A stretch of DNA of 64,000 nucleotides from Schmidtea nova. Its lineage: Eukaryota. The notes beneath the pieces are model-generated. The model ran no database searches, was not told the origin of the DNA, and saw only the letters and a list, made by a program, of their open reading frames with translations. Positions within the stretch are counted from its first letter, which is position 1, and each line of letters begins with the position of its first letter. Location of the stretch: contig CM097882.1 of assembly GCA_044892505.1 (NCBI GenBank), positions 503,998,001 to 504,062,000 on the forward strand, in the 5' to 3' direction. The position numbers and the translations under genes were made by a program. This document shows, in pieces, positions 9,185-49,010 of the stretch.

Positions 9185-10260
9185 AATTCAATAAAGGTAT
9201 TTTGTTACTTTACGTTGCTTTAACTTTTATATATTATTTTCGGGTAATCCCTCATATTAACTTTTGTTCGTGGGAGAAAAATCATATAAGGAAGCCTCGT
9301 TGGTTGTATACTACGAGGTTGACGGCCTCTCAGTCGCGACTCTTTCGGGGGTCGCGCCGATGCGGCGACTTTCCACTAACTGACGGGAGGGAGAGGATTG
9401 CACATAGAGCATTTTTTCGCTGAGTCCATAATATTTTTTTCAAGGGGCATTATCACGGAACATTTTTATGAATAATAGAAGTAATTTCCATTTTTAAACT
9501 AAGTAGATGTCGGTAATCACATAGTGCCTTTCCATTTAATCACAACGTGTATTTTGCACTAAACATGTAGAACATTTTCATTAACCACCTAGGGTAAGTT
9601 GTACCGTAATTTCAGTATATAACCAAACCGACCCGTTAACATAGCTTAATGAATTGGGATTCGTACTCCTAGACAATAACACAGAGCATTCATGTCATTA
9701 AATATTTGGCCATACAGGGCAGTAATTTTCCATTAAATTTAAGTACATATCACAATTGAGGAAATCGGTCATTCAATCTGTTTAATCATAGGGAGAAATA
9801 GTCTCATCACACAAAATAGTATCTTTCATTTGGGACATACAACCCAGTAGAAAATAATTTACAATCCATGGCGAACTTTAAAAATTCATTTATGATGATA
9901 ATTCGACTTGTCCGTATAACACGGATAGACCAATAATCCCGATTTATCCATAGTGCAGTCATAGCATTTTTTACTCCATGACTAGAATCCGATGAGGGAT
10001 AGCGAATTTACTAAAAACATTCCAAGCGTAATATAATGCGTAACTATAACCAAATTAGGATAATGTAATACTGAAAAATGAACTGGAAGATTTGCATCGA
10101 CGAAGCGAGTAATCCAAATATTTGAATGAAATCAGCCGAACAAAAGACAATGAGAGGACTAAAGTCCAATTTTGCATGAACCGAACCTATTTAAATTGAC
10201 AAGAGTGATATAAACAATCATTTCACCGAATAGTTATGTTTCGCACCATTCCGTAGATAA
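9185..10260 (+). other. 5' part of the unassigned repeat family (unit U0): signature, GC-rich hairpins and linker
   Basis: aataaaggtatt (9190) then ggtaatccctcat (9243-9255), as in the units at 20874/20915 and 24330/24373; shares ctgacggga; hairpins cctcgt/acgagg and cctctc-agtcgc/gcgact-gagagg. Confidence 0.6.
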
Positions 10261-10272
10261 AGAGCACCAATT

Positions 10273-12460
10273 TGGTTACATGGAGATGTGCATATTCACG
10301 GGAATTCGGAGCCGTAACAAATGCGCGCTGGCAAAACTGTGCAATACTAGCGACCCCGAAAAATGCGCGCAAGACAAAACCGCGCCAATTTAATTCGTCT
10401 TCCATATCAATAACCCAATATTGCATTTTACGTGTGACTGTTGAAGTAATAACTATATGCCAAGTTTGCCAGGCATTAATAATGCAATTACTACTATGTA
10501 ACAATAATAATTAAAATTTATTAAAAATAATTTTCAAATAATTAATCTGTGAAGATAATAAAAAAATTTAATAATTAATTATTAATTAATGATTTCTGTA
10601 TTTAAATTATAGAAAAATGATAACCATGACAAATTGGCAGAATAGTTTCCAGAATTCAGTCGTGGAGAAAACAGTTTCTCAGAGACAAAAAGATAAACTG
10701 TTACATGGTGGATACAGACAACGAAGGGACAGAATTCTTGCAGGTGGAAGAATTTCATGGAGGTGTTCCAGAAAAGATTGTTCTGATCGTATTAAAGTTA
10801 GTAAATCTGATGATGTTGTTGTTGTGACAGAGCACAATCATGCACCAAATCCGGATAAAAATGAAGCAACCAAGGTTGTTGCAGAAATTTGTCGACAAGC
10901 CGTGACAACCGTGGAAAGGCCTCGTCAAATCATCCAACAGAACACAGCGGGAGTTTCATTGGAAGTAGCCAGCCATGTTCCAGAATATACTGCTTCTCAA
11001 CGGACAATTCAATGACAACGAAAGGGATGTGCTGTTCCATATGGTCCGAAGAATTCACTAGCTGACATCACCATTCCAGATCAACTTGAACAAACAACGA
11101 GGGATGAAGATTTTGTACTGTGGGATTCTGGTGAAAACGACGCGAAAAGAATTCTGATGTTCGGTACTATGGCAAATCTGGATCTGCTTCAACAGTATAA
11201 TCATTGGTTTATCGATGGAGCATTCAAAGTGGCACCAACAATCTTCTGTAGGTGTTTACTAGCCACGCATTGATCAATGGTTCTGCATACCCTCTCGTTA
11301 ATACCTTATGCCAGACAAATCACATGACAAATTGGCAGAATAGTTTCCAGAATTCAGTCGTGGAGAAAACAGTTTCTCAGAGACAAAAAGATAAACTGTT
11401 ACATGGTGGATACAGACAACGAAGGGACAGAATTCTTGCAGGTGGAAGAATTTCATGGAGGTGTTCCAGAAAAGATTGTTCTGATCGTATTAAAGTTAGT
11501 AAATCTGATGATGTTGTTGTTGTGACAGAGCACAATCATGCACCAAATCCGGATAAAAATGAAGCAACCAAGGTTGTTGCAGAAATTTGTCGACAAGCCG
11601 TGACAACCGTGGAAAGGCCTCGTCAAATCATCCAACAGAACACAGCGGGAGTTTCATTGGAAGTAGCCAGCCATGTTCCAGAATATACTGCTTCTCAACG
11701 GACAATTCAATGACAACGAAAGGGATGTGCTGTTCCATATGGTCCGAAGAATTCACTAGCTGACATCACCATTCCAGATCAACTTGAACAAACAACGAGG
11801 GATGAAGATTTTGTACTGTGGGATTCTGGTGAAAACGACGCGAAAAGAATTCTGATGTTCGGTACTATGGCAAATCTGGATCTGCTTCAACAGTATAATC
11901 ATTGGTTTATCGATGGAGCATTCAAAGTGGCACCAACAATCTTCTGTAGGTGTTTACTAGCCACGCATTGATCAATGGTTCTGCATACCCTCTCGTTAAT
12001 ACCTTATGCCAGACAAATCACAAGAAGGATATGAGCATGTTCTTCACAAGTTTCAAGAATTGCGGTCAACTCTGAATCCGGCGAGTATTATGTCGGATTT
12101 TGAGAAAGCCAGTCAGAATGCCTGTTCAACCGCATTTCCTGTCTCGCAGTTAGTTAGATGCTGGTTTCATCTCGGACAGAACCTCTGGCGCCAGTTCCAA
12201 AATATAAATCTTGCAACAGCATACCGTTATGACGAAAATCTAAGAATTCATGTCAAAATGATGTTGGCCCTAAGTTTTGTTCCTGTAATGGATGTTCCTG
12301 CTGTTTTCGATGAATTGGCAAATGACTGTCCTCCTCTAATAGCACCATTGATCAACTACTGGGAAGATATATACATAGGCCGACAACGAAGGGGCTGACG
12401 TGAAAATCCAAGGTTTCCTTTACAACTGTGAAATGTTCGTGCTCACGTAATTGATTTCGA
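10273..12460 (+). mobile_element. MULE (Mutator) element remnant with FLYWCH-type zinc finger + MULE transposase pseudogene
   Basis: TIR-like aaatgcgcgc repeats at 10273-10390; ISWRCSRKDC...EHNH; FIDGAFKVAP; MSDFEKA...CWFHLGQ; stops and frameshifts; 3'-truncated. Confidence 0.9.
10625..12020 (+). repeat. Direct tandem duplication of 698 bp inside the MULE transposase
   Basis: 10625-11322 repeats as 11323-12020 and gives identical translated segments; ca microhomology at the junction. Confidence 0.92.
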
Positions 12461-13220
12461 TTGTTTCCGCGCTTTGAACTTTATTCTTCATTCAATATTC
12501 TTTGGCCTTTTAAATTCTCGTCTGCTTAGCTTTCTTTGCTTTTGCAACACAAATTTTATTTCTGCAACTGATTCAATCAACGAATTTCTTTTCGTATATC
12601 AAATTTCTCCTTTCGTATTTCAAATTCGTTTCGTATTTTTCCACTTCAATTTTTCAATTTCACTTCTGTTCGAGTTTCAATTTTTTCTATCAATTTCAAA
12701 TTCTCTAACAAATTCTGTCTCTAACAAATTATTTTAACAACTTCTAATTCAATTCTTCCCTCTCGCGATTTCTGATTCTCTAATAACTCTTGTCTCCCAC
12801 AAATTTTGTCTGAAACTTGTGTGTCCTTCCCTTTTATAACTCATCAACTTTTTTGGTATTAGAGATAATTTTGTTTTTTGCATTTTGATTCCCGGATATC
12901 TCGTATTTTTCTTCCCATTCCCGTTTTATCTATGACAGCTGTCTAGGATATTTCAGATTTCCCTTTTTCCTTTTAAAGCCGACTTTTATCAGCACTTCTG
13001 TTATCTGAAAAGCTGTTAGGATTTTATTTTCCTACTTGTTTTTGTTTTCGTTTTGAAAATTTCTTTCACGTTTTTGTACTTACTAATTTGGAATGACCTA
13101 TGTTTTTGATTTCTTGTTGATCTCTTTTGTTTGTTCCCAACTTCTCATTTTCCAATTTTTGGCTGTGTCTGCTTTCTTTTCCAGCCTCCAAAAGATCACC
13201 TTATTCGTCCAATCAATTTT
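12460..13220 (-). other. Degenerate K/E-rich coding-like relic, possibly a retroelement ORF1/gag fragment
   Basis: Strong purine skew on the minus strand and coiled-coil-like translations with many stops; no diagnostic motif. Confidence 0.3.
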
Positions 13221-13436
13221 CCCCCAGTTAATTGTATTATTTATATATTATTTTGTATTTTAGGTATTCTCAACAATATGTTTTATAAATAATTTGATAA
13301 TAGATGACAAAGGCTACAAGGAGATAAGAGGTCTAAAGCCACCTAAGAAATAGTCACTGGTGTGTATGGGTGAAGCGCTAAAGTTTACATTGAAACGTTG
13401 TAAATGGCTAATATGATGATTTTTGGATATTCATGA

Positions 13437-14707
13437 ATGAATTTAAATAGAAAGGCACCAGTTATGACCAGCCGTTTTCTAAAATCGCTTCGATAGGAAA
13501 ATTTAGAAGTTAAGAGCGTCCTCACCAGACAAACCCGAAAAGTCAATGACTTGCGCAAGACGTGGTTCGCACCGCAGAAAATGAAGAAATATCTCCAAGA
13601 AATCGAGCGACTCCAGCGAGCTCTCGAGGAACAAGTATCATCATAATACTTATATTAATATTATAATTTTAATAACTAATCACTCTCAATCAACGTCCAG
13701 GGAAATGTAACCCTAGTAATTGGAAGTGTTCTGGATAATATTTGAAATGAGAATAATATCGCCGACGAAATTTCAGATGCGTTAACTGTGCCAATATGTT
13801 TAAAGGAAATATTAGGATTAGGATCTAATAATTTCCACCAAATTTAGCAATTTCAATAAAAAACAGTATGATAGAAAATCTAGATTACAAAAATAATCAA
13901 TAATAATTACGTTTTTAGTTTAGATATTTCAATTTTAATATTAATTTATATTAGTGGTTCTCAAAGTGTAAGTCATGTACCAACTTAAGATGGGTCACCG
14001 AAAATTTTAATATTTAGTTGTTCGTATTATATGCATATCAATTTAATTTTAATTAATTCGTCGTAATACAAAAGCAAATGTCGAGGATTTTATTTGCAAA
14101 AATATAAAACAAGCTCATTCATCTCATGCATCATCTTAATTATGCTTAAATATATGCTTTTAATAAATATATAAATTCAATTTTTTACTTTTTTCCGAGT
14201 ATTTTTACAGGTGGGTCACGAAACTTTACGGTTTTAATAGTGGGTCTCGACTGGTAAACGTTTGGGAACCACTGATTTATATTTTTCAAGATATTTGTTA
14301 CATTTATTTTTAATATCAATTAACAAAAATTATAAATATTTACTATTTATTTTAAACCACTTCATTTATATGTTAACACGGATTTAAAGTGTTAACAACA
14401 AAAAACTAATTCATATAAGCTTACTTTTACTTAACCTTAATATCACAATTTTTTTAAAATGTCGTTTTTATTTAAGTTTTATAAAAGAGAAAATTAAACG
14501 GATAATTCAGTTAATTGTGGATATTTCATTGATTTAGTAAAAGGGAAATGCATTTAGAACTGATATTTGTTGAAGGATGAAAATAAAGAAACCACGGAAA
14601 CCTGTCCAAAAACTCGAAAACCCTCAATCCGAAAAAACTGCGCAGGCGCCCGCTGCCGCAGGCAACGCCGTGCGTTTGCCCAAAAGTTGAGATTACAAAC
14701 AAACTAA
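13437..14707 (+). pseudogene. Degenerate homolog of orphan ORF-B (unit U3), in two pieces
   Basis: 13437-13646: SLR*ENLEVKSVLTRQTRKVNDLRKTWFAPQKMKKYLQEIERLQRALEEQ, colinear with ORF-B; 14564-14707: ...RCRRQRRAFAQKL, matching RRRERRAYAERI. Confidence 0.75.
13952..14274. mobile_element. hAT MITE (323 bp)
   Basis: TIRs tagtggttctcaaa / tttgggaaccactg; perfect TSD atttatat (13944-13951, 14275-14282). Confidence 0.92.
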
Positions 14708-17700
14708 CCAGCCGGTCCATCCTAGTCCGATTTCATACACAAATTAGTTCCCATGTGTCCAGAATAAATGTTATAATTGTGGTTATCGTTGTTATTAGTG
14801 TTGTTCTCGTCAATGGTTGATTCGATAAGCCAGTGATAATTTCAAAGAAAAACCTAAAGAGTGTGATGAAAAAGTTGGCCTTCTATCTGTCCTAGAACTA
14901 GAAGTGAAGCAAGTGGATAGTAGTTACTTTCGAATCGCTCACTTTCCAACTTGGTTCGCGTCGACATGTACATTTCCAACGTGAAACAAATCTAGGGGTT
15001 TAACGGGTACATGCTCCTGGGAAGTCAATTCATGGTGGTGTTCACTGCTAATACCCTAGATACTTATCATATTAAGTTTCTACCACGCGAACGCCAACAT
15101 TAATAATAATCTTAATTATATAATAATACTCGTGATGATATACATTGATGAAAAGGATAAGAAGATTGAAATACCACTGAATTTACTCGCGATAAGCTAT
15201 CATAATCTTTTTATAGTTAAATTGTATAAAACTCTATGTTACTGATATTTTTCTCGCAATTCACAAAATGACAAAAATAAAAAAATTGGTTAAATTCTGA
15301 ATTTAATGAAATTTCTTGATATTTAAGGTAACTGAAGCAAATTTTCTTTAATTTATCAATAATAAGAACAAATAAAATAAAATCTTCCCCTTGTTTGTTT
15401 ATAGTTAAAAACTTTTCATAAGAATTTTAATAAAAATAAATATAATTAAGGGGATAGCAAAATTTGACTGAAGTCAAATCTACAATTTTTCTGTGGATCA
15501 TGATTGACTTGACTTCATGTTTACAATAACAGATCAACGTTTTCATAATAGATCGATATAGTAAATGGTTTTAGATTGTTTCTTTGAAAATACTATTACG
15601 TTGTGTATTGTATGTTATGAATTTATTTGTACCTTGTCCTCGGAGGAACAGCACGACCCTTTCAACTACAAAGATGAAGCGGATCAATAATTGAAGTTCG
15701 TTTGATGGCGGTCATCGAATTGGAAGAGAACATACAGCTTCTACCTGGCAAGCCTCCTTACAGTTATCGACATCTGGAACAGCACAATTTCTCATAGCTG
15801 ATAAGGATTCGGAGGGGATTAGATTTCATTTTATTTTCTTGCAGAATATGATTAAGGTTCATTAAAATAATCAAAAAAAATCGGAATAATTTTGTAATTC
15901 TCATTTAAGACAATCATAAAAATTGACTTTACAAAAAACAAATATTATTATTGTTTTAAATAGCAAATATAAATTAATCATTTCATTTACTAAATTTAAG
16001 TATTATTTTTTTAAATTTTAATTTATTTTTAAATAATTTATTTTTGCTAAAAAAGCTCCATTTAATCGATTTTTGTATTTTTAATATTATTTAATATTAT
16101 TTAATGTATATTAATTTTTATTAATTTTCTCATTTATAATTTAAATTTTTAAAAATTATAATAATTATTTTAGCATTTTTTATGTTATTTAAATAATTTT
16201 TGTTCTTTTCTTGTCTTATGAAAGTTTTCGTGCTATACTTCTTGCATTTGTAAAATTTTTGTTTATTTTTGTTTAAATTCATTTTCATTAGAATTTATTT
16301 TCATTAAATATTTTTATTTTGTTTTAATTGGTGTTTTCTTGAGATTATTTCAAATTCACTTATGTGGTTTCCTACAGTTATGTTTCGCTACGTTTAAACA
16401 AATGTTTAGAATTGGTAATTTATGATGGATTAAAAAAATAGCGTGCAAATATTATTTAATATATATGAAACGTCGTAGTAGTTGCTATAACGCCAAAAAT
16501 AAATTAAATAATTAAGAATTCGTTTTTCGATCAAACAACTAAATAGGGTAGTAGGTACTTGGTGATTAAGTAACTTCTTAAATTGAAATCTGCCTTCAAA
16601 AATATGGGTCGAAGTTAATAGAGAAAATTGAAATTTTGCCTTGTTATTCAAATAATGATAAATGAAACCTCGTGTAAATCTTAAGACGAATTGAGGGAAA
16701 ATTTTGACTAGCAAAAGGAGCTAAAACATTCTTTGTTAAGTTCCAATGTGATTTCAGACAAAAGAAGCGATCTTTTAAAATTTAATGAAAATATTTGCGA
16801 TGCATAGGAAAACTAAATTAAATTAACCGTAATTCAAATATGGGTGCCAAAACGGCAATACTGCGATATCCAGAAATCATTCAAGACTCGATAGACTGTG
16901 TGTGTAATGATAAGTGTGTATATGTATATATGACCCTTAAACGAATAATACTCTCTAGATTGCTCAATTGGAAGCAGTATAAATAGTGCTTCAAATGTAT
17001 GTTCAAGTTTGGATTTTCATTAAAAATAATAATCAAATGTTTTGTTTTAATAAACACCAACTAAAATATTAGTGAATCGTAAAAAATTATTAGATTTAAT
17101 TTTGGTGCTTCCATGAACGCTGTCTTAATTAACAGAAGCAATTCTTGTAATAGCTAATTTAGTTTAAACCAGGAATTGGAAATAAGAAATAGTTAGTGGC
17201 AAAATATAAAAAATTCTTAAGCAACATATCGTCAAGTAAATAATATATTTTTAATTTAGTTTAATAGATTTAATAAGGCTAATAATCAAAAATAATTATG
17301 CAATATATATACTTATACATTTTTTACTTATACAAACCTATAAAATATCTAAGATATCACCAAAAGTTAATTACTATAAATAATATATTATGTAGATGTG
17401 CAAACTTTAATGTTTACTTAATTTTTAAAATCTTTTATTTCATATTTTTTAGAAATAATTTAAGATTATTATTCTTTATAAAGTTTATATGTTAATAACA
17501 TTTGGAAAAGTAAAAAAATTTTTAAAAAAAGGAAAACTGTTTTAAATTGTTAAAATCTGAGTCAGGATTGGGGTTTTTGTCAAAGTTTAAAGTTAAGTCA
17601 GAATAAGAGTCAGTTAGTAGATTTTTAATCTACTCCAAAGCCCTAGTTACAAAGTTATACTGTTTATGAGTTTCTGAAACTTAAATAATAATAAATATAA

Positions 17701-18724
17701 TTGGTCAACAAACACTATAAAAAGACAGTGCCGAAAATTCGTGTTAAATATAAAATAAATTGATAGTCTAAAAAAGAAATGAAGATAAAGGAAATTGATA
17801 AAAAGATAAAAATATAAATGAAAATTTTAAAAAAATATTAGTTTTGTTTCTGCATTAATAGTTTTAAAATGATAGCTGAAACTTAGTGGATGTTAAATGT
17901 TACCAAATAAAAATATGCAATTCACTGGAGTCTTTGCTGCTAAAATTGACGGATAAGAGGAAATAATGAAAATTAAATATCATAATTCTATTGGAATTTT
18001 TAAAGTTCAAATACATCGGTATCTGAAAGAGACCAGTGTAAGAGACCAATAGAAGACTGATACTGAAAAATTACTACATCGATACAAGATTTTTCATAGT
18101 AAAATGTATAAATAAAATATTTTATTTTATTTTATAGTGACATTTAATAATACATTTTTAACTTTAAAAAAATATTTTAAAAATCAATAGTAATAAATAT
18201 ACTTTTTATATAATGGAATTTTTTAATTATTCTTCATTCTAATTGAAAACACTACTCAAGGTTACAACGAACACATAAAGTAGTACCACAAGCAAAATGT
18301 TATCATTTCTACATGTATCATCAGACATTTGAGTATTTTCAACATGTATTATTTTCCCGTTCATTTGAGTATCATTCATTGAAAATTATTGATTTCTCAT
18401 TTATTACCCATAGTTCGATTCGATGATAAATGCCCACAGACAGTATTGCACACATGATTAATGCCCACACAGAATAATGCTCACAAGGAAAAATGCCCAC
18501 ATAGATAAATGCCCACACGAAATTAAATATTATTAATCATTTAAATTTATTTTAGTCTTAATACAAAATTTATTTAAATACATATTATTACATTATTTAA
18601 ATTTATAAACCTTGTGTGTAAATTAAATATTATTAATCATTTAAATTTATAAACTTTAGATGTAAAAAAAATAGTACTACAAATATAAATTTTAAGTTTA
18701 TTGCAAATTAGCCAACTTTCGCAA

Positions 18725-19990
18725 CTATAGAATCTTATCTTCCATTGCACTATATTGTTGCACAATAGTGGATACCGAATCAGCTAATTTTTGGTACTTC
18801 CTATTTTTAATTTCAGGACGACCCGTTTCTGAATTGGCTAGTGTTAATCTCTGACAAGCTATATCTCGATGCAATCCATCAAGTAAAAACCATATGCTGG
18901 GATGACTGCAGTGAAATAAAGAATTCAAAGCATTATGAATTCCCTCACAGCAATTCGTTGTTTTCGGTGATTTCTCCAAAGCTGAATCATAATGATTCCA
19001 CAATCCAATGGAGAACAATGGATTTCTACCAGCTGCACCCTCAATATATGTGCCAAAAAAATGTCAGTATTTCACTATAAGCCTCTTCTTCTGGATACGT
19101 TGCTGCAAGCTGATTAAATACTGATCTAACATCAGATACTGACACAAATGACAATGCTGCTAATGATTTCAGCTTTAATTTTATATCCAGGTTGTTTTCG
19201 AATGTAGTTTTAAGACCAACAGAACTATTTTTCTTATTATACTCTGGGCCAAATGGAAATAACAGCCTTTTATGACAGTTTGTGGAAATGCGATTCTGGC
19301 TGCATTCATCGCTGCTTTCTCAAAATCTACCAATATCTTTTCAGGTGCCAAATTTGGTAGCAAGTTCTTTAATATTTCAAACATTTTTTTGTATGTATCT
19401 CCGTTTTTTTTTAACAGAAAATAAATACAAGGTGGATAAGAGTTACCAACCTGAGCATGCCAAGTATACAGTTGATAAAACATGCTTGGAACTTTATCAA
19501 AAGTTCCATCTCCGAATATTGTATCCTTATTTAATTCTCTTAAGAGATAAATATCACCTAAAACAAGAATTCTGTCTGGATCACTTGCACCTGAATCATG
19601 AAGGACTAGCAAGGTTTATTTATCCGGAATTTCAAAATTTGAATCTTTAGGTACTGGTAAATGTCCATCTCTTCTAAAATTCAGAAGATTCCTAGAAATT
19701 GAAGTTTTCTTCGGCATATACGATAGTGCTTCACTGCTTACTTCTAATAAAATACTCCCCATTACATTTCTAGGAGTAGCACCAATTGATGTCATCGCAT
19801 CCTGCATTTTTTTCTTTGCTATATTACATTCAATTTTTTGTGGGCAGGATTCATGGCAATGTTTTGTTGGCTGTTTTACAATATTGCCATCTTTAGTTTT
19901 TATTATGGAATAACATTTTGTAATTCGATATTGCCTGCATCTCCAAGTCAATACTTCATTTGTTGTACGGAAATATATATATACTCAAAC
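18725..19990 (-). pseudogene. MULE transposase, disrupted
   Basis: WRCRQYRITKC...KHCH; IFGDGTFDKVP; LVDFEKAAMNA; GCYFHLAQS; KTTNCCEGIHNALN. Confidence 0.93.
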
Positions 19991-20713
19991 CCAGAGTAAA
20001 TTAAAACTCGATTGCCTTTATGTGTACTAGAATATTCCATTCTCAGGCCTATTAAAATATTTTAAAAAATATCGTTAGAAAATTATGGTATCAAAAGTAT
20101 TAACAAAAGAGAATTTAAATAAACCTTATAATTTAAACATACCTTATAATTTTTTTTTATATTCACAAATTTTCAATTTATGTATTAATATCACTTTTAT
20201 AATTTTAAATATTACTACGAAATTATAAATTTAAATATTACTACGAAATTTAAACGTATGTATATTAAAACCACTTGTAAGTACGATATTCACTTTTGAA
20301 ATGAATTATACTCAAGCAAATTTTTTTACATAAAGTGATGTTGGGCCAAGCAAATCTGAAATGAACTAAAAAATAAAATTAAAGAAATACAAACAAATAA
20401 CAAGAAATAATCAAACAAATAACCAAATTGTCGGCATTTTGACAAGCGCACAACAAAGCCTGAGAAGGTTAACAATAGATTAAATAAAATGTTGACAACA
20501 AAAACTTACGCATGCGGAACGATGGAAACAATAGAAAAAACTAGCTACTCAAAATTGACAACGAGTAGGCGGATCAACCAGCACAAATCTACAAAATAAA
20601 ACAAATTAATAAAATAAAGTCACGGTTGATTAAACAGAAAACTCACAGCATTAAGAAGTACCGACAAACGTTAAAAAATGAAATACACACAAGGTCTGCT
20701 TGCACACTGAATT

Positions 20714-20767
20714 CTGATTGGCTGGACGGCAACACCTTTTGGTATATAAGCAGCAGTAAAAATCAGT
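20714..20767 (+). promoter_or_regulatory. Pol II-type core promoter of U1 (reverse CCAAT, TATA, Inr)
   Basis: ctgattggctg 20714, tatataag 20743, tcagt 20763; same order and similar spacing in U2. Confidence 0.65.
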
Positions 20768-21600
20768 AGTCATGTCATTTTTTTACCGAGAGTAAATTTC
20801 TCACTGAGAGTCATTTTCTGTCTAACCGAATAACGATTGTTAGCGAAACACTGTAAACCGAACAGTTTGAGGAAATAAAAAGTACGTTGATTTAGAATTT
20901 TTCATTATTTTAAACCCTCATGATCAAAATCTATAAGGTTTGTCCCGAAGATCATTTGATCTGACGGGATTCTCGGCCTGTCAGCACAACACATTCTCAT
21001 GTGAGGGCTGATGCGGCGAGAGAAAGACGAGCGACTAAACATGGGGAAGGGTGCACATAGATGTCGGAAGTCACGGTAAAAATTAGAGGTTATGGGAATA
21101 TGTTCAGAGGCAGCAAATATCCATCAGCTCACCCGCAATTAACACTACCCCGAACTACATAGATAGGGTTATATAGTAAAGGGTTATGCAACCCGAGAAT
21201 CGCTAAATACCCACTGAGATCAGTCGTACATCCTACAAATAGCCCGATAAGAATTTATGAATCAGTGTTAGGTGAATCTAATCTGTGACCATAGATAACA
21301 AGTATAAATCAAGCAACACAGCACACTGAAGTGACACAGGTTCGTCTAAAAGCATCGATTGAAACATAGCGTAGTAAAGTGTAGATCGACATACCACTCT
21401 CATTAAAATAATAACTGATCACAGTTTAACCAGTTAAACAAATTAACGGAAAAAATTTTTGTCATTGACAGCCACACTTTCTGAGTAAGGTTCAATTTAT
21501 TTCCGAATGCCTGATTGTATGATGAATGCGTAAGTGAGGATTACTGAGGATTGAATGAAAATTGTCAGTGTTAAATTATATATAGCTTGATTTGCAGCTC

Positions 21601-22053
21601 ATGCCGAAAAGAACACCGATAACGTACCATTGCCAGCCGATCGCAAGCAACATCCTGAAAGCCATCACGAGGGATGATATTCCAACCAGGATCTATAACA
21701 GGGCTGAGAGGCATATGCGGGCTTGGAGGCGCCGACATGTACATATGAGAGCGTCCGCAGGAGAAACTCTATATCAATATCGAATCCGATGGGAAGGTGA
21801 CCCTTGCTGGCCGGAGACGCAAGAACATCATACCAAAACTTCGTCGAGGTGGTTTGTCCAGTTCGAGGACAACCACAATGTCCGATGGATTCTAACATTC
21901 ACTCCAATTCCGATCTGCATCTTTCAACGGCTTGGCTATACCTTTCTCAGTCCTCCAAGATGCATCAAAACAGGAGAAGCGCGACCCTACATCAACTCTC
22001 CAGGACATCGCGACCTACAGCAAGACACCTGGGATCAAAACACAACCTTGTGA
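21601..22053 (+). CDS. Orphan ORF-A (150 aa), unknown function
   Basis: MPKRT...AERHMRAWRRRHV...RIRWEGDPCWP...RWFVQFED...PPRCIKTGEARPYINSPG; same motifs in the disrupted U2 copy; acceptor tttgcag 3 nt upstream of the ATG. Confidence 0.7.
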   Translation: MPKRTPITYHCQPIASNILKAITRDDIPTRIYNRAERHMRAWRRRHVHMRASAGETLYQYRIRWEGDPCWPETQEHHTKTSSRWFVQFEDNHNVRWILTFTPIPICIFQRLGYTFLSPPRCIKTGEARPYINSPGHRDLQQDTWDQNTTL

Positions 22054-22384
22054 GAAGTCTTCGTATACCAGGATGAATTATGCTGGATTCCTTGTCCAGA
22101 TTTCTATCACCCGGACGGAACCGGCAAAGAAAACCGAATCTGCGAGCAAGATTGGATCTAAATGGACAAATCGAATGAATTTTTATGAGAAAGAAATATA
22201 TTAATGAACTCTTGTATTTTTGTTGCGGAATGCATGAAAGTTGACAAACTATGGTTGATGTATGATGAATAGTATGTGCACTTCTGAAGGGCAAGGGTGA
22301 GGAGTGAGAGTCCAGAATGAATCCGTTGCGCTGATTTCCCTGAACTTTAAAGTGAACCCAAATTTTACTCACTCCCTTTTGTAG

Positions 22385-22932
22385 ATGGATACAACTACTA
22401 ACCCAAACGATGAGATACGTTCGTTGCGACAACGTATCAGGGCAGTGGAAAGCCTCGTGAAACGGAAGGAGAACGAGATTAACGAACTACGTACGACCTG
22501 GTTCAGCCCGGAACGGGTCAAGGACATTCAGAAAAGTCGATACCGGGTGGAACGGGCTCTAGAGGATCAGACCCGGAAGTTGCAGCCACCAGGCTGGAAC
22601 TCAATAACTATTTGAGAGTTTCCACGAAGGAGTTCGTGACCCAACAACTGAGACCGTTGATCCGGCTGAGTACTTGCAGTCGTTGGATTGAATCAGCTGG
22701 TGTGTCGAATGGGACACAAACGGATGCGGGTATCGACAACACACAAGAACCACCAAGACCATTTCCCCAAGCCGAGGGCTCAAAACGTACTAAAAGAAGG
22801 AACCGCCTAGCGCTAAGAGGCGTCGAGAACGATGGGCGTATGCGGAGAGAATCTGGATCGAAGTGGATCTCCTGAGCGGTCTAACAGAAAAGCAGCTGCT
22901 GGCCGTCATCAACCCTACTGTGTTATTGAAGT
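22385..22932 (+). pseudogene. Orphan ORF-B of U1, two frameshifts
   Basis: Pieces MDTTTN...TTWFSPERVK...ERALEDQ / LELNNYL...EGSKRTKRRNRL / KRRRERWAYAERIWIEVDLLSG align to the intact U2 ORF-B. Confidence 0.85.
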
Positions 22933-24170
22933 GAAATAAATGTATTGTAATTAAATTGTATTGTTATGAATGCATGTGGAACGATTGATAATGTAAATAA
23001 AAAAATGACTGAGCATATCCAATTCATTTAAAAGCTAACGGACACGAGGAATATAAATCAACCCTAGACGTAATGTAGTTGAATGGATGTGCGGTAACCG
23101 GAATAAAACCACGCAAACCTTCTATCGGTAGTGGTGGACCCGTGAATAAGTAAAGGAATAGTAGCCGCAAGGTTGCTCACCTGCCTTACCATTTCAAAAC
23201 GTTGATACAGTTCCAACATGATGAGTAGTTAGGGATACATCATGGGTATCAGCGGGGGAAAGCGTTTATGTTGGCGAGGTTACCCTAACCAATAAAATCA
23301 AGTATCACCTCTGTTTTAAAATCTAACCAACAAACCAGCAGTGAAATCTCGGTACCTAAATTGGGTTTCCTTAAAAAAAAAGGATTGAGTAGAAATAATG
23401 AATTAAAAATTTTATTTAAGGAATAAAACAATTTTTTTTATCTGTAATTTTTAAAATATGAAATTCGATTTTTAATTTTCTTAATATAAATAACCGATTC
23501 CGGCAAAACTTTTATCACTAATATAAAAATATAAAAAGCTTCGTGGGCATTTATCTATGTGGGTATTTTTCCTTGTGGGCATTATTCTGTGTGGGCATTA
23601 ATCATGTGTGCAATACTGTCTGTGGGCAATTTTCGTGTGGGCATTTTTCGTGTGGGCAACATTGTTAATTTTATTAATTGATTCTATATTGATATTTTAC
23701 CTTTAATTTTGTCAATAGTTTGCAGATTGTTCTTGCGAATGTATATGACCGTATAAGAGAATATCTATTACCTAGCTCAGTTATCAATAAAATCTATTCC
23801 AAAACAAATGGGTTACGTGTATATAGGTACGATGAATGTAAGTGCGGATAAATAACCAAAAAATAGAATAAGAAAGAGATAGAGATACTTGTATAAAAAT
23901 GAGTATACTCGTCACCGGTAAACATGTTTAATCATGAATAGACGAGCATAATTCTCTCCTGTTAACAATGTGTTAATGAATAAATACACACCCAAGCAAG
24001 ACACAAACTGACAACGAGTAGGCGGACAACGAGCGGAACATGATAGCTAAAAAATAAAAATCGAATAAAATAAAATTAACGGTTGAGTAAACATAAAACT
24101 CACCGGATTAGACAAGTAAAGATAAACATTAAAAATGAAATGCTCACAATACTCGCACACATACTAAATT

Positions 24171-24224
24171 CTGATTGGCTGGCCGTCAACAGAAATAAGT
24201 ATAAATACGGCAGCCAAATTCAGT
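24171..24224 (+). promoter_or_regulatory. Core promoter of U2 (reverse CCAAT, TATA, Inr)
   Basis: ctgattggctg 24171, tataaata 24200, tcagt 24220. Confidence 0.65.
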
Positions 24225-25291
24225 CAAATGATGTCATTTTTACCACTAAAAATCAATTTTACCGAGCGGTAATTCTTACCTGTGAAGTGAATTACTATCA
24301 GAAAACCTTTGTACAAGAGAATCGATTGGAATAAAAGGTATTCTATGATTTTATTTTGTGTTTATTTTTAAACCCTCATGATATCTAAAATCCATAAGGC
24401 ATCCCGAAGGTCAGGCGATCTGACGGGATTTTGTGCCTATCAGCGCAACACATTTTCATGTGAGGGCTGATGAGGCGAGTGGATAAGTTTAGTAAATTTG
24501 GGAAGGCTGCACGTAGACATCGAATTTGAATAACCACGTAGAGGGATATGCCCAAGTACCACTGCATGACAATGTTGGAGAAGGCACATGGATAGTGCGA
24601 TATGATAACACCATCGAGAGTGTATTGAAAAAAAAATCTGAATCGATGATAACATGGATTGAGAAAATGATAAAGAGAAGTAGGTAACAGACATCACATG
24701 TTAAACCTAATCATGATAAAGGGCACCCACGAGACGAGGCCATAGGACATATAACAAACGTTAACAATAAATGAGATCGTATGAGGCGCCCCGTAAAAGG
24801 TTTAATTGCACAAGTTGAAGTAAGCGTCATCCCTTAATCATCATTGAGGAGAGTAACGATAAAGCACAAGGGTAACCGACACTTCAATGATAATCGACAT
24901 GCCAATTTAAATGATATGAGTAGCTGTGCTATGATTGATTGTTGAAATATATGACTGATCAATGAAATGACATGCCTGGATGCATGATATGAAAGACTGT
25001 TGTAGGCCAGTCTATAATAGACCAGACTAGCGTAGGCCGAATGGTGAAGGTAAACGATCATTTAAAAATGAATTAAATGTTGAACTAATCAGTTAAACCA
25101 TCATTTATGTTGTCGGACGAAAATAAAATCATTAAACAAGCAAAGGTAAGCAAAAATTTTAATTGATGGTGAAATTGGAAAAACATGCTTGAGTCTGTAA
25201 TGGTGGGAATGATGACGATATATCGTGATTGAATGAAATGAAGGCAGCTGCTCAAGTATAATGTATGAATTTAATGAATTTCTCGCAGAAA

Positions 25292-25712
25292 ATGCCAACG
25301 AGGACCATTCACGTTTAGCAATGTAAATTCATGAAAACGATCGCAACGGGATCGAATGCAATTCCAGAAAAAATCAAAGCCACAGCCGAGCGTCATATGC
25401 GGGCGTGGAGACGAAGTCATGTAGACCCCACATCGAGATCAATGGCATTCCCATACCGCTTCCGGATCAGATGAGACGGTGATCTAGCTTGGCCGATATC
25501 ATGCACGGATAAAGCCTCAAAACCCACCAAGATGGTTTATTCAATTCGAGGATGACAAGGGAATCCCCAGATGCCTACTAACGCATGGGGTGCATCTTAT
25601 TGGAGCCTCCTAGGTGTATACGCACAGGAAAGCTGCGGCCGTACACTAATTCGCCTGGAAACAGAAAAATAGTAAATAAATGTATAGTTGATTTCATGAG
25701 TTCGGAATGTTG
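25292..25712 (+). pseudogene. Orphan ORF-A of U2, with stops and frameshifts
   Basis: MPTRT...TAERHMRAWRRSHV...FRIR*DGDLAWP...RWFIQFEDDKGIP...PPRCIRTGKLRPYTNSPG; acceptor ctcgcag 3 nt upstream of the ATG. Confidence 0.8.
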
Positions 25713-25864
25713 AGGCATGAGTGTGGTTTGAATTAAATGATTGGGAGACAAATGAAATGAAATGGGAGTGGGTAAATCTAAATAGGATACCCGAAATGGT
25801 GCGGTAACGGATGATTAGCTTAAATTGATGAGATATGATTAACTAATCGACTCTATAATTCTAG

Positions 25865-26398
25865 ATGGACACAACGACAAACGACATAAATTCGAATGAG
25901 ACTCGGTTATTACGCAAGCGCATAAGAGTGCTAGAAAGTCATTTAACACGGCAGGAATCTGAATTGAGTCAGCTAAAAACGACCTGGTTCCACCCCGAGC
26001 GGGTCAAAGAGATCCAACAGCATAGATACCGGGCGGAGAGAGCGTTGGAGGATCAAGCCCGTGAAACTGCCGCGGTCAAATTGGAGCTCAATAATTACCT
26101 GCCAGCATCCACGAAAGATTTCATCGAACAACAACTAAAACCGTTAATCAGCACCAGTACATTCAACCGTTGGGCAGAGTCGATCAATGTATCCAGTGGA
26201 ACCCAAACGGAAACAAGCCTCACCCCTATATTAGAAAGCTCAAAGGAGATTTCCAAGCCGGAAGGATCGATGCGTACGAAGCGAAGGAATCGCTTAGGCA
26301 CAAAGAGACGTCGCGAGAGGAGGGCCTACGCCGAACGAATAGGAATCGAGGTGGATTTCTTAAGCGGGCAAAAAAAAGCAATTGTTAGAGGTCATTAA
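25865..26398 (+). CDS. Orphan ORF-B (177 aa): N-terminal coiled coil, TWFxP motif, Arg-rich C-terminus
   Basis: Uninterrupted ORF with two homologs in the window; ATG directly follows an AG acceptor (ttctag|ATG; U1 ccctttt gtag|ATG). Confidence 0.8.
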   Translation: MDTTTNDINSNETRLLRKRIRVLESHLTRQESELSQLKTTWFHPERVKEIQQHRYRAERALEDQARETAAVKLELNNYLPASTKDFIEQQLKPLISTSTFNRWAESINVSSGTQTETSLTPILESSKEISKPEGSMRTKRRNRLGTKRRRERRAYAERIGIEVDFLSGQKKAIVRGH

Positions 26399-27908
26399 CA
26401 CGGATGTTAATAGGGACACATCATGGGTAACAGCGGGGGAAGCGTGTTTATGTTGGTGAGATTAGCCTGAAAATTAACATCAAATAAAATCTCAGTTAAA
26501 AATCATACCAACAAACCAGCAATTGGACTAAAATCAAAATTCAAAAATTAACACAATAACCATAGATATATAATATTTAAAACAAATCACAGAGAGCCTC
26601 TTTCTATACTTTTACGTTGTGTTCATTACAAACAACAATCTAATGATAACAAACTCGAGTTGCTCACTTCTGAGATAGAAAATGTAAATGTTATTAACAA
26701 TAAAGATGTCTGGAAAGTGGTTTTGGCTCGGATCAAAAATACCAACTTATACCAACATTAGACAACTAATCAACTTGTAGTAAATGACTGGAGCTTTTAA
26801 ATACACTATTTCACATTTATAAATTATACCTACTACATGGTTACACAATATACACATGTAAGTAGTTCAATAAAACTATTTAATTGATCATTATCGGTAA
26901 TCCAAGAAAGTTTTCCATATTACCATTTCCACTTGCATAAGCTATTTCAATTTTTAAAACTCGCGGTAATATATAATATTGTAAAAGCTTTATTATTAAA
27001 AGTTGTATAGGAAATATTTTTATTTCAAATCATTATGTACAATTGAAACCGATTTAAATTATTTGACTTTAATATCCAATTACGAAATAGTAACCGGTGA
27101 CATGAGATAGTTTCTACCTAAGACTAACAGTAATAAAAATACTACATCGAAATGTTGCTATAGTGATTTAATACTTATCAAAATAATAGTGTCTAAATAT
27201 TATCTAATAACGTAAATTAAAATGTGTTTTTATAAATTACTTCAAATATATTTAGTTGTGGCTGTTGTTTTAAAAATCCAGAAAAAGGAAGTTTTAGTAT
27301 AAAAAATATTCGGATCGGGCCCGACGCCACGAGGGGCATTTGGAAGGAATGCCCCCCCCCAATCGAGATGTCTTAAAAAAATTTAGGTGCCTTTTTTTCT
27401 ACTACGATGGCAAACACTGCTGTTTGCAATAAATTTTCTGTTTTCTAAATAAAGTGTGCATTGATTGCTCACACATCTCAGGCTACAGCATTGACCACTC
27501 ACCGCACCTATTGTAATACAACCTTTCTTATTTATGCATGTACTCTCATAACACTATAGCCCTTCTCATACACGCGCAGACTTATAATGTCACTTTGAAA
27601 ACAATCAGCGATCGACTTATGTATTGTCTATGCAAGTGTCTACCGTTTTACTACAGTGTGACAGCTGGCATTCATTGTAAAGCATTATGATCTATAAGAG
27701 TAAGTGTTGCAACTTTGTATATTATAAAAAGTTAACGTGTTGCTTTGGATAAATCAGATGTCAAAGCAACAAAAACATTGCTGGATTAGTGTTCTTGTTC
27801 TGTTCGTGTTGGGAGCACGCCTTCAGTTGCTTCTCCTGGTCTAACTTCTCATGCTCAAGCAGATCAAGCATGCCAACAGGGTGATATTGCAAATATGTGA
27901 GCTTTATC

Positions 27909-32011: not shown

Positions 32012-33768
32012 CAATTATATATATTATATTAAGTTACAAAATTTAAATGCGAACAAAAAGGAAAAATCGCAAATTTAAGAAAACTAATATGATTCGATTT
32101 TCCAAACAACTTTATAAATCAAAGAATTACATTATCAGTTTATAAAAGCAAATCAAACAAAAAGGTACTATTACTATATTCGAAACACAAATTTTTAAAA
32201 TTATAAAGTAATACTAAACGGGTCCTTAAGACAATCAAAGTTTACAATAAGACAAAATTTATAATGAATTTGATTAATGAAAAAGTTATATATTTAATCA
32301 AAATAAAAATTGGAAAAATCCAATGTCGAAAATTCGTGTTTCAATGAAATAATTTTGATATATTCTCTTAAAAAATGAAAATACCTTAAATTTAAGTGGA
32401 AAAGATCAAATATAACCTAAGTTAAAAATGTTTATGTTAAATAAAATAATTATTATTAATAATTTTAATTTTAATCACATGGTGATTGTGTATATGAAAT
32501 GGTTTAAAAAATTGTTTTCATTATCTTATAAAGACGAATGAATGTACAAGTTAATGATTTTCTACTAAGCACAAAAAGAATGATTTAAAATATTGATTGA
32601 AACAGGAGTAATCATTAAGCAATAAATATATCATTGTGTAATTTAGGTTATATTCAAGTTTGGCAACTATATGCCATGAGGGGCTCAATTTTCAATTAAT
32701 TAAGATATTTTACGTTAAGAATATTTAAAAAATTAATTAATTTTTAATTGGGAGGGGGCTGAAAGCTAGTAGTACCAATTTTGGTTTCGTTTAAATTTGT
32801 ATGGATATATTTTAATTTCTAACTATTTTGAATCATAATTTAAAAATTATGTTTTATAAAAAAAACTATTGATTTCAAGACAACTTGTGTACATTATTGT
32901 ACAAAACCAATGACATTAGTTAATGATAAAACAAATTTATAGATATTAGTGTCGCTGCTAGCCGAATAATAAACGCTGAATGAAGCGTCAAAAAGATTTG
33001 GCAGCTTTTAAACGTACAAGAAAACTGTTTGAAAAGATCCTATTCTTAATTTATGTTTTGTCATTTTAATCTCCAGTGAGTGTTGTGGCAAAAAATTAAA
33101 AATCACCCTTAAACAGTAATTCAAGGTGATGTTTATAAATAATTAATTAAAAATCCAGCCCCTTTGCTATAAGTATAATATAATTAAAACTAAATGATAT
33201 TTAGTTATTTATCGGGTAAAATTACCATTGAAATTAGAATAACTATGAAATACAATAAAAAACACTTAGTATATGGTTAGCATATTTAAATGTGTCCATT
33301 TTACATAATTCGTTACTCAAATTTCTAACAAAAAATCAGAATATTAAAAATTTAATTATGATTCATTAAATAACATATAAAACAAGAATAAGCAAATTTA
33401 CTTTATTATTTTTAAGCCAAACTATATCAATATTTACGACATTTTTCATTAATATAAACATATCTTTTAGAAAATGAATATTTCTGTATTGCATTTAAAC
33501 ATTTCTGACATTTCAATTGAAATTTAGATTTAATGTATAAAAATTTTGTATAATTATCCAGTGTCCTGTAAATATTTTTTAAAATAATTGAATTTCAATA
33601 ATAAATAAAAATTTAAATTCATTTTTAACCTCATAAAATTTCAATTGGCCTCATTTATTAATAGATTTGAAAAAAAACTGAAATCTCCAATTGTTTCTAA
33701 TAGTTACTATGACATTTAAATGTGCTTAATTACCAATGGTTGTAAAATGAAATTAATTAAATAGGCCT

Positions 33769-38375: not shown

Positions 38376-38432
38376 ATTACTATATGTCAATTTGTTATAC
38401 ACTAAAAAGGGTCCACGAATATTTTAACCCAT

Positions 38433-46979: not shown

Positions 46980-49010
46980 TGGCTACCGCGCCATACAGTT
47001 TCAATATCCAACCAATTTAGTCTCTCTATCCTCGCAGGGTCCTCTTTCGCCTCGTGATATTGTGAGACCCTCTCCGATAAGGTCTCTCTATCTCTGAGGA
47101 GCGCTCTATTTCATTCAGGCGTGTTCGGTTGGTATAATAACACAGTGGGTATATCATCAATAATTCTTAAGATCATCCTTAGGATTTCTTTCTCCTCGAC
47201 ATGACGTAGTATCTATTATTCCTTTTTATCTAATGTTATAAATTCATTGTTCGAACGACAAATATTTTACCTACTTCGAATCGTTAATTTATTCGGTGTA
47301 ATAGAACCGCTAGTCAAGTTCTCGAAATTATGAATGCAATTTGGTGATCACGTTTCTTATCATGATGTGTGATGGCCCTGTCGACGATTATGAAATTTTT
47401 TAATGTATGTAGGTATTTCTACAGAACGATAATGGTTAGTGGGTGGTTATTGAGGTGTCGCTGATTAGTGATTTGTTGAGTTATCGTCTGAATCTTTCAA
47501 TATGAACCTTTTCTCTAGGTCCACGTGTTCTTTACGGCAACCAATAAATTAACTCAACACAGAAATAACCTTTATTGAAAATAAATCTCCACAACAATTT
47601 ACAATTTATTATGTTAATTGACAGGGATCCCGATGGGAAGCCGCCTCAGATATTACTAAATTTTTCCTTTTTACAAATAAAACTTTTTATCTTTTCACGA
47701 GTCTGTTTGATTTTCTTTTTCTTTACTCCCAATTCTAAATTCTTACTCTAGTATCTCTCTAAATTTTACTAATAATTTTCGACAAAATTGTGGCCAAAGT
47801 TGTTGATTCGAGATTCCTTTATATAGGAAATCTTCAGCAATTAATTTAATTGATTAAAAATTTTGATTGGACTCTCGGGAAACCCATGGAGTAATTTGTT
47901 TTATCTTTTGGCCGCTTCAGCCGTTTCCCGGCAGAAACTTTAAACGCAAATTGTATTAGTGAATACTTAGTTCCCTTTATAATTAAATTTGTAAGAATTG
48001 GAGAATTTCTCCCTAATTTAATTTATTTGTTATCCTCATTTTAATTATTTAATTAATTTGTATTTTCTTAATAACTTTTTCTAGGGATTCCAAATTAATT
48101 TTACATTATTATTTTCGTAATCGTCTCGTCAATTGGCATCGGCAGATACCCGTTTCCCCCGGAAAATATTGGTTTATGATTTTAATTAATTTTTAATTAA
48201 TTATTTTTTTCTGATTTTGTGTCAATTTATTATAGTTTTAGTGGAACCTCAACATATTCATAAATTCTGATTCCTGGTTGTCATTTTGTACAGGAATTTC
48301 TTACCTTAATCTTTGTCAATTTGAATTCCAGTGTCGGATTATTTAATATCATTACTGTTCAAACAGATGATTATTCATTTAATTTCCCTCAAGAAACTCG
48401 AAATGTCCGCATATGCCATCCATCACAATTTACAAATTGGGTAGTATTACCCTTGCCTTTTATTTTAGTATGACCTAGTCAAATTTAATACTCCCGCTTG
48501 CTTTCGTGACCGCGATATTCGACCTCTGCTTCGGTCTGGCGAAAATGGGGTTTTCCATCTGCTAGAAATTCTGAGACTGGTAAGCCTTTTGAATCTCGAA
48601 AAATTTGTATTTCATTACTTTCTGGACAACGGATGAAAACCCCGAACCACTTCTGCGGATCTAGACCTTCACCCTTTGGGAAAATGTAGTTGGTCAGCCT
48701 CAAAGCTTCAAGCAACCCTTTATTTATCGACTAATGAGGGAAGAAAAATGTATGAGGGTTTACCCATAATTATTCACAATAAATCACAATTAACGATGGA
48801 ATGAAAATTACTTTATTCGGATGCTGTAGTACTGAATGATAATGCTAAATCAATGCTAATGCTTAAAAATGCAAACGACAAAGGTAATAAAATGCTAATT
48901 ATTCACGTGGAACAAGATAGATGAATTGAATTCCTTGAAATAATTAGGCTAGCTCTTATTTGGTGATTGAGCTAGTCAATCAAAACAGTTGCGCCTCTGC
49001 AATCGATGAG
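46980..49010 (-). other. Probable diverged member (U4) of the unassigned family, or a related element
   Basis: Minus strand: gattg/ccaaataagag promoter-like region, aataaagtaatt (about 48815), gggtaaaccctcat (about 48755), tgaggctgac; small ORF-like pieces at 48485-48715 and about 46980-47230. Confidence 0.45.

Follow-up and report, generated by a model that had tools for sequence, protein, structure and literature searches.

Solo long terminal repeats of Burro-type giant retroelements in Schmidtea nova and two conserved genes inside them

Burro (GYPSM1) elements are giant planarian Gypsy-like long terminal repeat (LTR) retrotransposons with an interior of up to 25 kb and a total length of more than 30 kb (PMC6431247; this and the other papers are cited from excerpts). 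Some BIR, BCL2-like and dUTPase-like motifs have been found in them by HHpred (PMC6431247), Burro is a PIWI target (PMC8532177), and stem-cell protection has been reported for the RING/BIR region of Burro1, B-IAP (excerpt of PMC13465017, citing Lee et al. 2026). Here, two neighboring units, U1 and U2, are described from a 64,000-nt stretch of Schmidtea nova DNA (contig CM097882.1, positions 503,998,001 to 504,062,000), hereafter the window, in whose coordinates feature positions are given. Both are solo LTRs, now decayed, that stem from giant Gypsy retroelements of the Burro type. Solo LTRs are a known kind of sequence, and the new part is the presence inside the LTR of two protein genes that are under selection and belong to no known family. 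As a whole, we consider it probable that these are solo LTRs with two selected genes, which the promoter of the LTR itself likely expresses by splicing and whose likely role is to regulate the RNA of the element.

Ends, target sites and full-length relatives

A sequence-only reading had described U1 and U2 as colinear two-gene units of an unassigned family that lacked any target-site duplication (TSD), terminal inverted repeat (TIR) or LTR pair. It favored an undescribed non-autonomous element or a virus/satellite, gave a dispersed host gene family as the alternative, and mentioned in brackets a very large solo LTR of a giant retroelement. The colinearity is borne out by self-BLAST, with 71.7% identity between 20552-21020 and 24005-24479, 66.8% over the second open reading frame (ORF-B) and 80.4% at the 3′ end. 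It is the bracketed option that proved correct. Aligning copies genome-wide, as that reading had proposed, gave the true ends, 4-bp TSDs and an autonomous partner.

Searches were made in the 1.25-Gb host genome, and all copies described are natural genomic loci. The U1/U2 family amounts to hundreds to over a thousand genomic copies. Searches with ORF-B and with the first reading frame (ORF-A) gave 151 and 150 matches, from the best 150 of 8,892 and 2,871 candidates, respectively, which argues for a dispersed high-copy family and not a local duplication. Forty aligned loci end at one 3′ boundary (U1 23340, U2 26521), and the closest begin at 20338-20339. U1 therefore spans 20339-23340, and its start lies 131 bp further out than the position 20470 first proposed. 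The units and their flanks are as follows:

20335..20338, + strand: left TSD of U1, GTGA, read in the sequence
20339..23340, + strand: U1, complete solo LTR of 3002 bp with TG...CA termini; ends common to dispersed copies, 4-bp TSD
23341..23344, + strand: right TSD of U1, GTGA, read in the sequence
23980..26521, + strand: U2, decayed solo LTR that has lost ~200 bp at its 5′ end and retains an intact 3′ end, placed by alignment to copies

Relative to its closest copies, U2 carries deletions of 32, 196 and ~295 bp, and it stands outside the TSD count because its 5′ end is lost. TG...CA termini are found in U1 and eight other natural LTRs. A 4-bp TSD flanks 9 of the 10 solo copies with both ends in a first sample and 9/9 in a second (18/19 in all), as well as each of three full-length elements. 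Exact end patterns recovered 1,263 5′ ends (control 0) and 364 3′ ends (control 15) in the genome, and these matches have recurring flanks, with 5′ ends spaced 25-26 kb apart. Junctions of the LTR with a primer-binding site (PBS) number 562 and junctions with the upstream flank 209 (controls 0). The PBS begins 6 nt past the LTR 3′ end, is exactly complementary to the 3′ end of the host tRNA-Pro(TGG), and is also found behind own-clade LTRs (L040, L068, L072 and L095). The conserved flank before the 209 LTR starts consists of a short G run and a palindrome, not a long purine tract. A simpler PBS pattern, TGG within 4 nt of the 3′ end, was rejected, as it gave 10 unrelated flanks. The genome also contains tRNA-Pro(TGG) genes arrayed in tandem, one every 308 bp (L106, C1:459.61 Mb onward; 1,037 pattern matches genome-wide), which would provide primer for these elements.

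Three natural full-length copies were read, namely E1 (28,402 bp; C1 4.396-4.424 Mb), F1 (29,361 bp; 53.720-53.749 Mb) and F2 (29,508 bp; 59.281-59.311 Mb). The two LTRs of each are 99.9% identical, and every LTR carries ORF-A and ORF-B. The last 244 bp of U1 are 85-86% identical to the paired LTRs of F1 and F2, which form a sister subfamily to U1/U2 (ORF-B 59% and ORF-A 35-38% identical). In F1 and F2 a single uninterrupted frame (5,079 and 5,087 codons) encodes the polyprotein, which in E1 is spread over two frames; it contains, in order, zf-CCHC, a fusion glycoprotein (E 2e-71), protease, reverse transcriptase (RT), RNase H, integrase and ankyrin. The rest of the interior holds a RING ORF, which adjoins the primer site, tandem repeats and, after the polyprotein, a TRAF/MATH ORF and two further ORFs.

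These elements are Burro-type, an assignment made by domain order and size as described in the excerpted account (PMC6431247). In common with Burro, they have a length of ~28-30 kb, a polyprotein of ~5,000 amino acids (aa) and an env-like fusion protein between gag and protease (excerpts of PMC6431247 and PMC13465017), together with ankyrin repeats, RING and MATH/TRAF domains, tandem repeats and a high copy number (excerpt of PMC6431247). They differ in that their 28.4-29.5 kb fall slightly under the >30 kb quoted there, the MATH/TRAF domain forms a separate downstream ORF, no BIR match was found in the larger ORFs scanned, and ORFs internal to the LTR are not mentioned for Burro in the excerpted description (PMC6431247).

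Among 20 sampled PBS-bearing LTRs, three belong to the U1/U2/F clade, seven to another ORF-B-bearing clade and nine are short LTRs without an ORF-A/B match; the remaining one has an ORF-B match after the PBS. ORF-A/ORF-B homologs also stand downstream of the primer site at L064:5470-6820 and L080:4435-4810, perhaps as nested or rearranged LTRs of a distant lineage. In addition, three gag-only non-autonomous derivatives of about 12.6-14 kb were found (L077+L105, L078+L103 and L087+L104, at C1 2.67, 5.57 and 51.56 Mb, respectively), in which short LTRs of 1.4-1.75 kb retain the termini, the tRNA-Pro primer site and the 3′ RNA structure described below. Two inverted-orientation pairs of LTR copies were seen as well, at C1:18.09/18.11 Mb (20 kb apart) and 94.07/94.12 Mb (50 kb apart); they are likely inverted segmental duplications, since the first pair has identical flanks. 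Pairs of ORF-B matches 3-10 kb apart were considered as single elements and rejected as separate insertions. A Ginger-type DNA transposon was considered and rejected because long TIRs are lacking and a PBS is present.

An independent non-autonomous element, a virus/satellite or a dispersed host gene family could be entertained given that most copies stand alone and that the PBS follows only 3 of the 100 first-listed exact 3′ ends. However, identical paired copies enclose gag-env-pol, PBS and TSDs occur in the LTR pattern, and solo copies by themselves lack a tail, a long TIR and a primer site, which makes this account very improbable. The TSDs, the PBS and the LTR pairs around a Burro-type gag-env-pol thus remove both the undescribed element and the host gene family proposed earlier, and a match to an LTR, which the same proposal had named as an outcome that would refute it, is what was found. 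U1 itself has TG...CA termini and a GTGA duplication, and the paired LTRs with an autonomous interior lie elsewhere in the genome. Almost certainly, from established LTR biology, integrase would have made the 4-bp TSD, recombination between the two LTRs would have removed an interior of ~22-23 kb, and decay would have followed. Nothing plausible is left against the solo-LTR identity, short of assembly artefacts in the TSDs and LTR pairs. This does away with a spurious "new element class" and assigns the units to a family that is already known and has been studied functionally.

Two genes inside the LTR

Both reading frames of the supposed two-gene units were located, but neither U1 nor U2 holds two intact genes:

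21601..22053, + strand: U1 ORF-A, 150 aa, premature stop; predicted acceptor CAG at 21595-21597
22385..22931, + strand: U1 ORF-B remnant with two frameshifts; predicted acceptor directly 5′ of the ATG, AATAAA at 22935
25292..25670, + strand: U2 ORF-A remnant with stops and deletions
25865..26398, + strand: U2 ORF-B, 177 aa, predicted coiled coil, Arg-rich motif at residues 137-153; predicted acceptor directly 5′ of the ATG

ORF-A of U1 is cut to 150 aa from the 186 aa of close relatives, and the C-terminal end of U2 ORF-B is unlike the rest of its family. Across the family, ORF-A measures 158-211 aa and ORF-B 185-198 aa (187-194 aa in the LTRs of E1, F1 and F2). In alignments of 19 ORF-A and 22 ORF-B naturally open copies, some Trp residues are invariant, and ORF-B in addition retains a basic block. 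The two proteins are mutually unrelated.

Both LTR ORFs are under purifying selection. The median ratio of nonsynonymous to synonymous substitution (dN/dS) is 0.20-0.24 for ORF-A (17 unsaturated of 171 pairs) and 0.12-0.16 for ORF-B (25 unsaturated of 231 pairs), and it is 0.07-0.20 among unsaturated pairs of copies chosen by PBS instead of protein similarity; all values point one way. The earlier remark that conservation is concentrated in the proteins and in paired motifs holds, as seen in dN/dS and in the covariation of the 3′ structure. Solo LTRs are usually taken as non-coding relics; here, both frames are open in six of the nine sampled TSD-bounded solo LTRs, and such copies could supply regulators in trans or be mis-annotated as host gene families.

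Homology searches gave no relatives for either protein. No homolog at E<=0.001 was found for ORF-B among 5,950 candidates, or among longer proteins (8,000 scored), or for ORF-A among 1,080 candidates. A profile of ORF-A run against 1.84 billion representatives gave a single match (E 1e-5) to a translated tandem repeat, which was rejected as chance. Sequence searches of the PDB with both proteins gave no significant match, and the best ESM Atlas scores of 0.81 and 0.85 are leads only. The ORF-A model (pLDDT, the predicted local distance score, 60) reached a best Z of 3.2 with no Foldseek match at E<=0.001, and the helical ORF-B model (pLDDT 77) matched no viral fold; these blank sequence and fold searches do not demonstrate a new fold. 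Published ORFs in Burro LTRs were not found in the literature searched, a coverage that left out the primary Burro papers, figures, supplements and repeat libraries, and the main Burro papers may already annotate them. No report of a Rev-like factor in any Gypsy element was found in the literature searched.

ORF-B is predicted to consist of helices at residues 3-110, a disordered linker, a basic helix at 143-167 and a short C-terminal helix, and a 17-residue basic window holds 9-11 Lys/Arg in 21 of the 22 copies. This layout also bears on the possibility, on balance unlikely, that ORF-B is a DNA-binding transactivator (bZIP- or Tas-like) of the LTR promoter, or that ORF-A and ORF-B are antagonists of host defence, for example anti-piRNA factors. 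The best Pfam hint for ORF-B is bZIP_1 (4/22 members, best E 1.3e-4, stronger than the hint to REV), and the predicted basic region runs on as helix through residues 143-167. Burro is, moreover, a PIWI target (excerpt of PMC8532177), and the cassette diverges faster than the internal genes, as arms-race genes do. Against these readings, the bZIP spacing N-x7-R/K-x9-L is absent at the basic motif in 21/21 motif-bearing members, its sole match being in a member without the full motif; the E1/L081 clade does not retain the Asn; and dN/dS is well under 1.

The faster divergence is seen in several pairs of elements. At synonymous sites, F1 and F2 differ by 0.14-0.19 over RING and two stretches of the polyprotein but by 0.58-0.61 over ORF-A/B, and the corresponding values for L082 and L084 are 0.31 and 0.89-0.91. 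Over the L089/L091 and L082/L084/L086 comparisons, the ORF-A/B cassette is about 2-4x more diverged synonymously than RING or polyprotein of the same pairs. The LTR ends are 93-96% identical in DNA sequence, compared with 56-77% for the middle of the LTR. Since the synonymous divergence of ORF-A/B exceeds that of RING and polyprotein and identity drops within the LTR, these figures suggest that the cassette has been exchanged between lineages.

Signals and a possible route of expression

The ATTGG, TATA and AATAAA-GTA signals and the AAACCCTCAT motif were found where the sequence-only reading had placed them, as were the two ORFs. Signals and RNA structures of the two units are listed below:

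20717..20749, + strand: U1 promoter, reverse CCAAT box (ATTGG) and TATA box, a pair kept across long LTRs
20874..20888, + strand: U1 AATAAA with a predicted 5′ splice donor behind it (GT at 20882), which would close a short non-coding leader exon
20910..21030, + strand: U1 5′ structured RNA motif, clade-specific hairpins (25-copy alignment; shuffle test)
23093..23340, + strand: U1 LTR 3′-end RNA structure, with a GNRA-capped hairpin, a second hairpin and a possible pseudoknot (28-copy alignment)
24174..24206, + strand: U2 ATTGG and TATA boxes
24330..24489, + strand: U2 AATAAA, predicted donor (GT at 24338) and 5′ structured motif

The pair of reverse CCAAT and TATA boxes at LTR +351-405 is present in 7/7 long LTRs and in 35 of 44 LTR starts, and the U3/R boundary of U1 likely lies ~30 nt downstream of it. 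The same genes could be placed in a long U3, with the 5′ CCAAT-TATA serving the cassette only and the genomic RNA starting from another promoter, devoid of a TATA box, just ahead of the 3′ structure, so that R and U5 would be short. A short R/U5 is the norm in LTR elements, and the MMTV (mouse mammary tumor virus) gene sag lies in U3. Four of the seven long LTRs have CCAAT and TATA-like pairs near the 3′ end, and the U1/F clade retains a motif ~60 nt upstream of the 3′ structure. However, the downstream TATA of U1 is conserved at its position in only 3/60 copies, compared with the 35/44 starts that have the 5′ pair, and short LTRs without ORFs retain TATA, donor and structured motif well upstream of the 3′ structure. 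We therefore judge this arrangement improbable, and R is more likely to begin just downstream of the 5′ promoter pair.

A donor-like GT lies at +508-544 in five of the seven long LTRs under a strict pattern, including F1, F2, E1 and L086; the AATAAA that immediately precedes it is conserved in no clade but U1/U2/F. A YAG with pyrimidines occurs within 15 nt of the ATG in 12/19 ORF-A and 17/22 ORF-B copies versus 27/296 background ATGs. A YAG lies within 5 nt of the ATG in all 22 ORF-B copies and ends 1-3 nt before it in all 12 internal accessory ORFs. A separate predicted acceptor at every ATG would also suit an operon-like transcript whose cistrons are resolved by spliced-leader trans-splicing instead of cis-splicing to an LTR leader. 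Spliced-leader trans-splicing is present in flatworms, the internal TRAF, o5 and o6 frames are followed by the next ATG 77-122 nt on, and the gap between ORF-A and ORF-B is about 190-320 nt. Yet the donor-like site at +508-544 is retained in divergent LTRs, and AATAAA occurs within 150 nt past the stop in only 7/12 internal accessory ORFs; we accordingly give trans-splicing about the same low probability as the U3 placement. Contigs from four runs on L061:250-4750 covered all 30 bins, and their three non-GT-AG joints, one contig each, are uninformative on splicing.

The 5′ motif had been called structured on sight, and its U1 copy does fold better than 199/200 shuffles (z -3.98); in the alignment of 25 copies it shows little covariation (3/19 pairs). 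The last ~250 nt of the LTR form a structure common to all subfamilies, short LTRs included. In a 28-copy alignment, changes on both sides occur in 10/27 pairs, and 97.3% of cells are paired compared with 31-44% in slid controls, a comparison that favors the structure as it was derived from the same sequences that were scored. Its first loop holds a poly(A)-like hexamer in 55/60 copies (AATAAA in 39). Rfam gave no match at E<=1 in four LTR loci and three weak chance matches in the window at 20000-27000. No ribozyme was among the Rfam matches, and hammerhead and HDV-like cores, looked for by eye, were dropped as well.

From these signals, the following route appears, on balance, the better one for expression by cis-splicing. 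Transcription would start near LTR +430, and a leader exon of ~100 nt, ending at the donor (+510-545), would be joined to an acceptor just before each ATG, serving both LTR genes and, where the element is complete, also RING, TRAF and the two further ORFs. The genomic RNA would end at the hexamer in the 3′ structure, and placing its end there puts both genes in an R region of ~2.4 kb, so that a solo LTR would be a self-contained two-gene unit. Such a layout bears on how a 29-kb retroelement expresses many accessory genes, RING included.

The many acceptors and poly(A)-like signals in the element imply that the unspliced genome would need help with export. Tentatively, and by analogy, ORF-B may be an oligomeric, Arg-rich RNA-binding protein, Rev/Rex-like, with whose help unspliced genomic RNA would get past the splice and poly(A) signals inside the element and be exported from the nucleus, and ORF-A may be a small alpha/beta partner regulator. 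More speculative still is the idea that a Ty3/Gypsy-type element independently evolved the control circuit of a complex retrovirus in its own LTR, comprising ORF-B as a Rev/Rex-like factor, ORF-A as its partner and a structured RNA as the target, with solo units that could act in trans and a cassette swapped as a specificity module. If true, hundreds of solo LTRs would be complete two-gene units that could influence full-length as well as gag-only elements in trans. The circuit would then also bear on what decides whether Burro RNA, which reportedly supports the stem cells of planarians, becomes genomic RNA or spliced accessory messages.

Several findings weigh against the overall explanation of selected genes that are spliced from the LTR promoter and regulate element RNA. 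Splicing from that promoter is a prediction, likely but drawn from sequence signals, and no acceptor was found near the polyprotein start. No full-length element of the U1/U2 subfamily itself was found, and the three own-clade PBS-bearing loci (E2-E4) read 30 kb downstream have decayed interiors. Of the 20 5′ ends in the second sample, 11 lacked a recognizable 3′ end up to 3.7 kb away and stayed out of the TSD count. Pfam gave no BIR, BCL2 or dUTPase match in the larger ORFs, which were the ones scanned. Since only copies with open frames were taken into the alignments, dN/dS is biased downward, and the relatedness of the copies means that they do not count as independent. The gag-only derivatives, whose LTR pairs are 99.6-100% identical over the parts read and which were therefore recently mobile, have no ORF-A/B match, so that the two genes are not needed in cis. 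Finally, the Pfam REV match of ORF-B stays below the cut-off (4/22 members, best E 0.0086; for U2, 14.1 bits versus a cut-off of 22) and may reflect only basic composition, while a loose nuclear export signal (NES) pattern past the basic motif occurs in 13 of 21 motif-bearing ORF-B copies and in none of the E1/L081 clade. Because the REV match is below cut-off and the NES pattern patchy, ORF-B is not classed as a Rev protein.

Other relics in the window and comparison with known systems

The window is rich in transposons, with Penelope-like RT, hAT, MULE, piggyBac-like and Gypsy remains. Features connected with U1, U2 and their relatives are:

9185..15100, + strand: third, older LTR relic, split by MULE and other insertions; its pieces are the 5′ motif (9245-9373), ORF-B (13482-13637 and 14579-14704) and the 3′ structure (14877-15063)
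18425..23634, − strand: MULE hosting the U1 insertion, with inverted ends at 18425-18516 and 23543-23634 and a MULE domain at 19181-19483
46980..49010, − strand: fourth relic, probably a 5′ LTR portion from a distant lineage, truncated ahead of ORF-B

Both outer relics had been proposed from the sequence. The one at 9185-15100 is upheld by three of the four family profiles, namely the 5′ motif (E 2e-15), ORF-B (two pieces, E 7e-11 and 3e-6) and the 3′ structure (E 2e-7), and the ORF-A profile has no match there. The one at 46980-49010 is linked to the family only indirectly. It matches none of the four profiles (5′ motif, ORF-A, ORF-B, 3′ structure), but a relative with 72-78% DNA identity (L120) carries an ORF-B profile match (E 1e-13) just past the matched part. 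Inserted in this relic is an unrelated repeat of ~780 bp with short inverted ends (47474-48255, − strand), of which there are many copies at 68-90% identity. It was rejected as an LTR pair, as two copies 24 kb apart have common flanks and represent a duplication.

Elsewhere in the window, the FLYWCH-MULE transposon that splits the third relic contains a 703-bp tandem duplication (99.9%) at 10625-12025. Positions 1-2274 hold an RT-bearing element, presumably Penelope-like by its layout, with a 427-bp inverted repeat (99.8%) of its own 3′ part. Ordinary Gypsy remains with RT and integrase occupy 33767-44778 (− strand) and are 25-40% identical to the Burro-type pol.

The closest known parallel to ORF-B is found in the Rev, Rex, Rem and Rej RNA-export proteins of complex retroviruses. 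Like these, ORF-B is a small protein likely made from spliced RNA, with an Arg-rich motif, identified by composition only, that is followed by a hydrophobic, leucine-rich tail, and with predicted oligomerization helices and a structured RNA in the LTR (excerpt of PMC3856414). It differs from them in having no significant sequence or fold match to them, in its greater length (185-198 aa, with an N-terminal helical region of ~100 aa) and in being wholly LTR-encoded.

As to the position of the genes, MMTV sag, HIV nef and foamy virus bel likewise place coding sequence in the repeat, so that it is kept by solo LTRs. Those genes lie in U3, upstream of the promoter. Here, in contrast, two genes stand downstream of a conserved TATA, with their own acceptors and poly(A)-like signals, and two genes within one LTR remain unusual. 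The ORF3s of rotifer elements (excerpt of PMC5408684) and the extra ORFs of Ogre elements (excerpt of PMC6431247) resemble ORF-A and ORF-B as family-specific accessory genes that are typically expressed from spliced messages. However, they belong to the internal region and are lost in solo LTRs, whereas the genes described here stay with the LTR.

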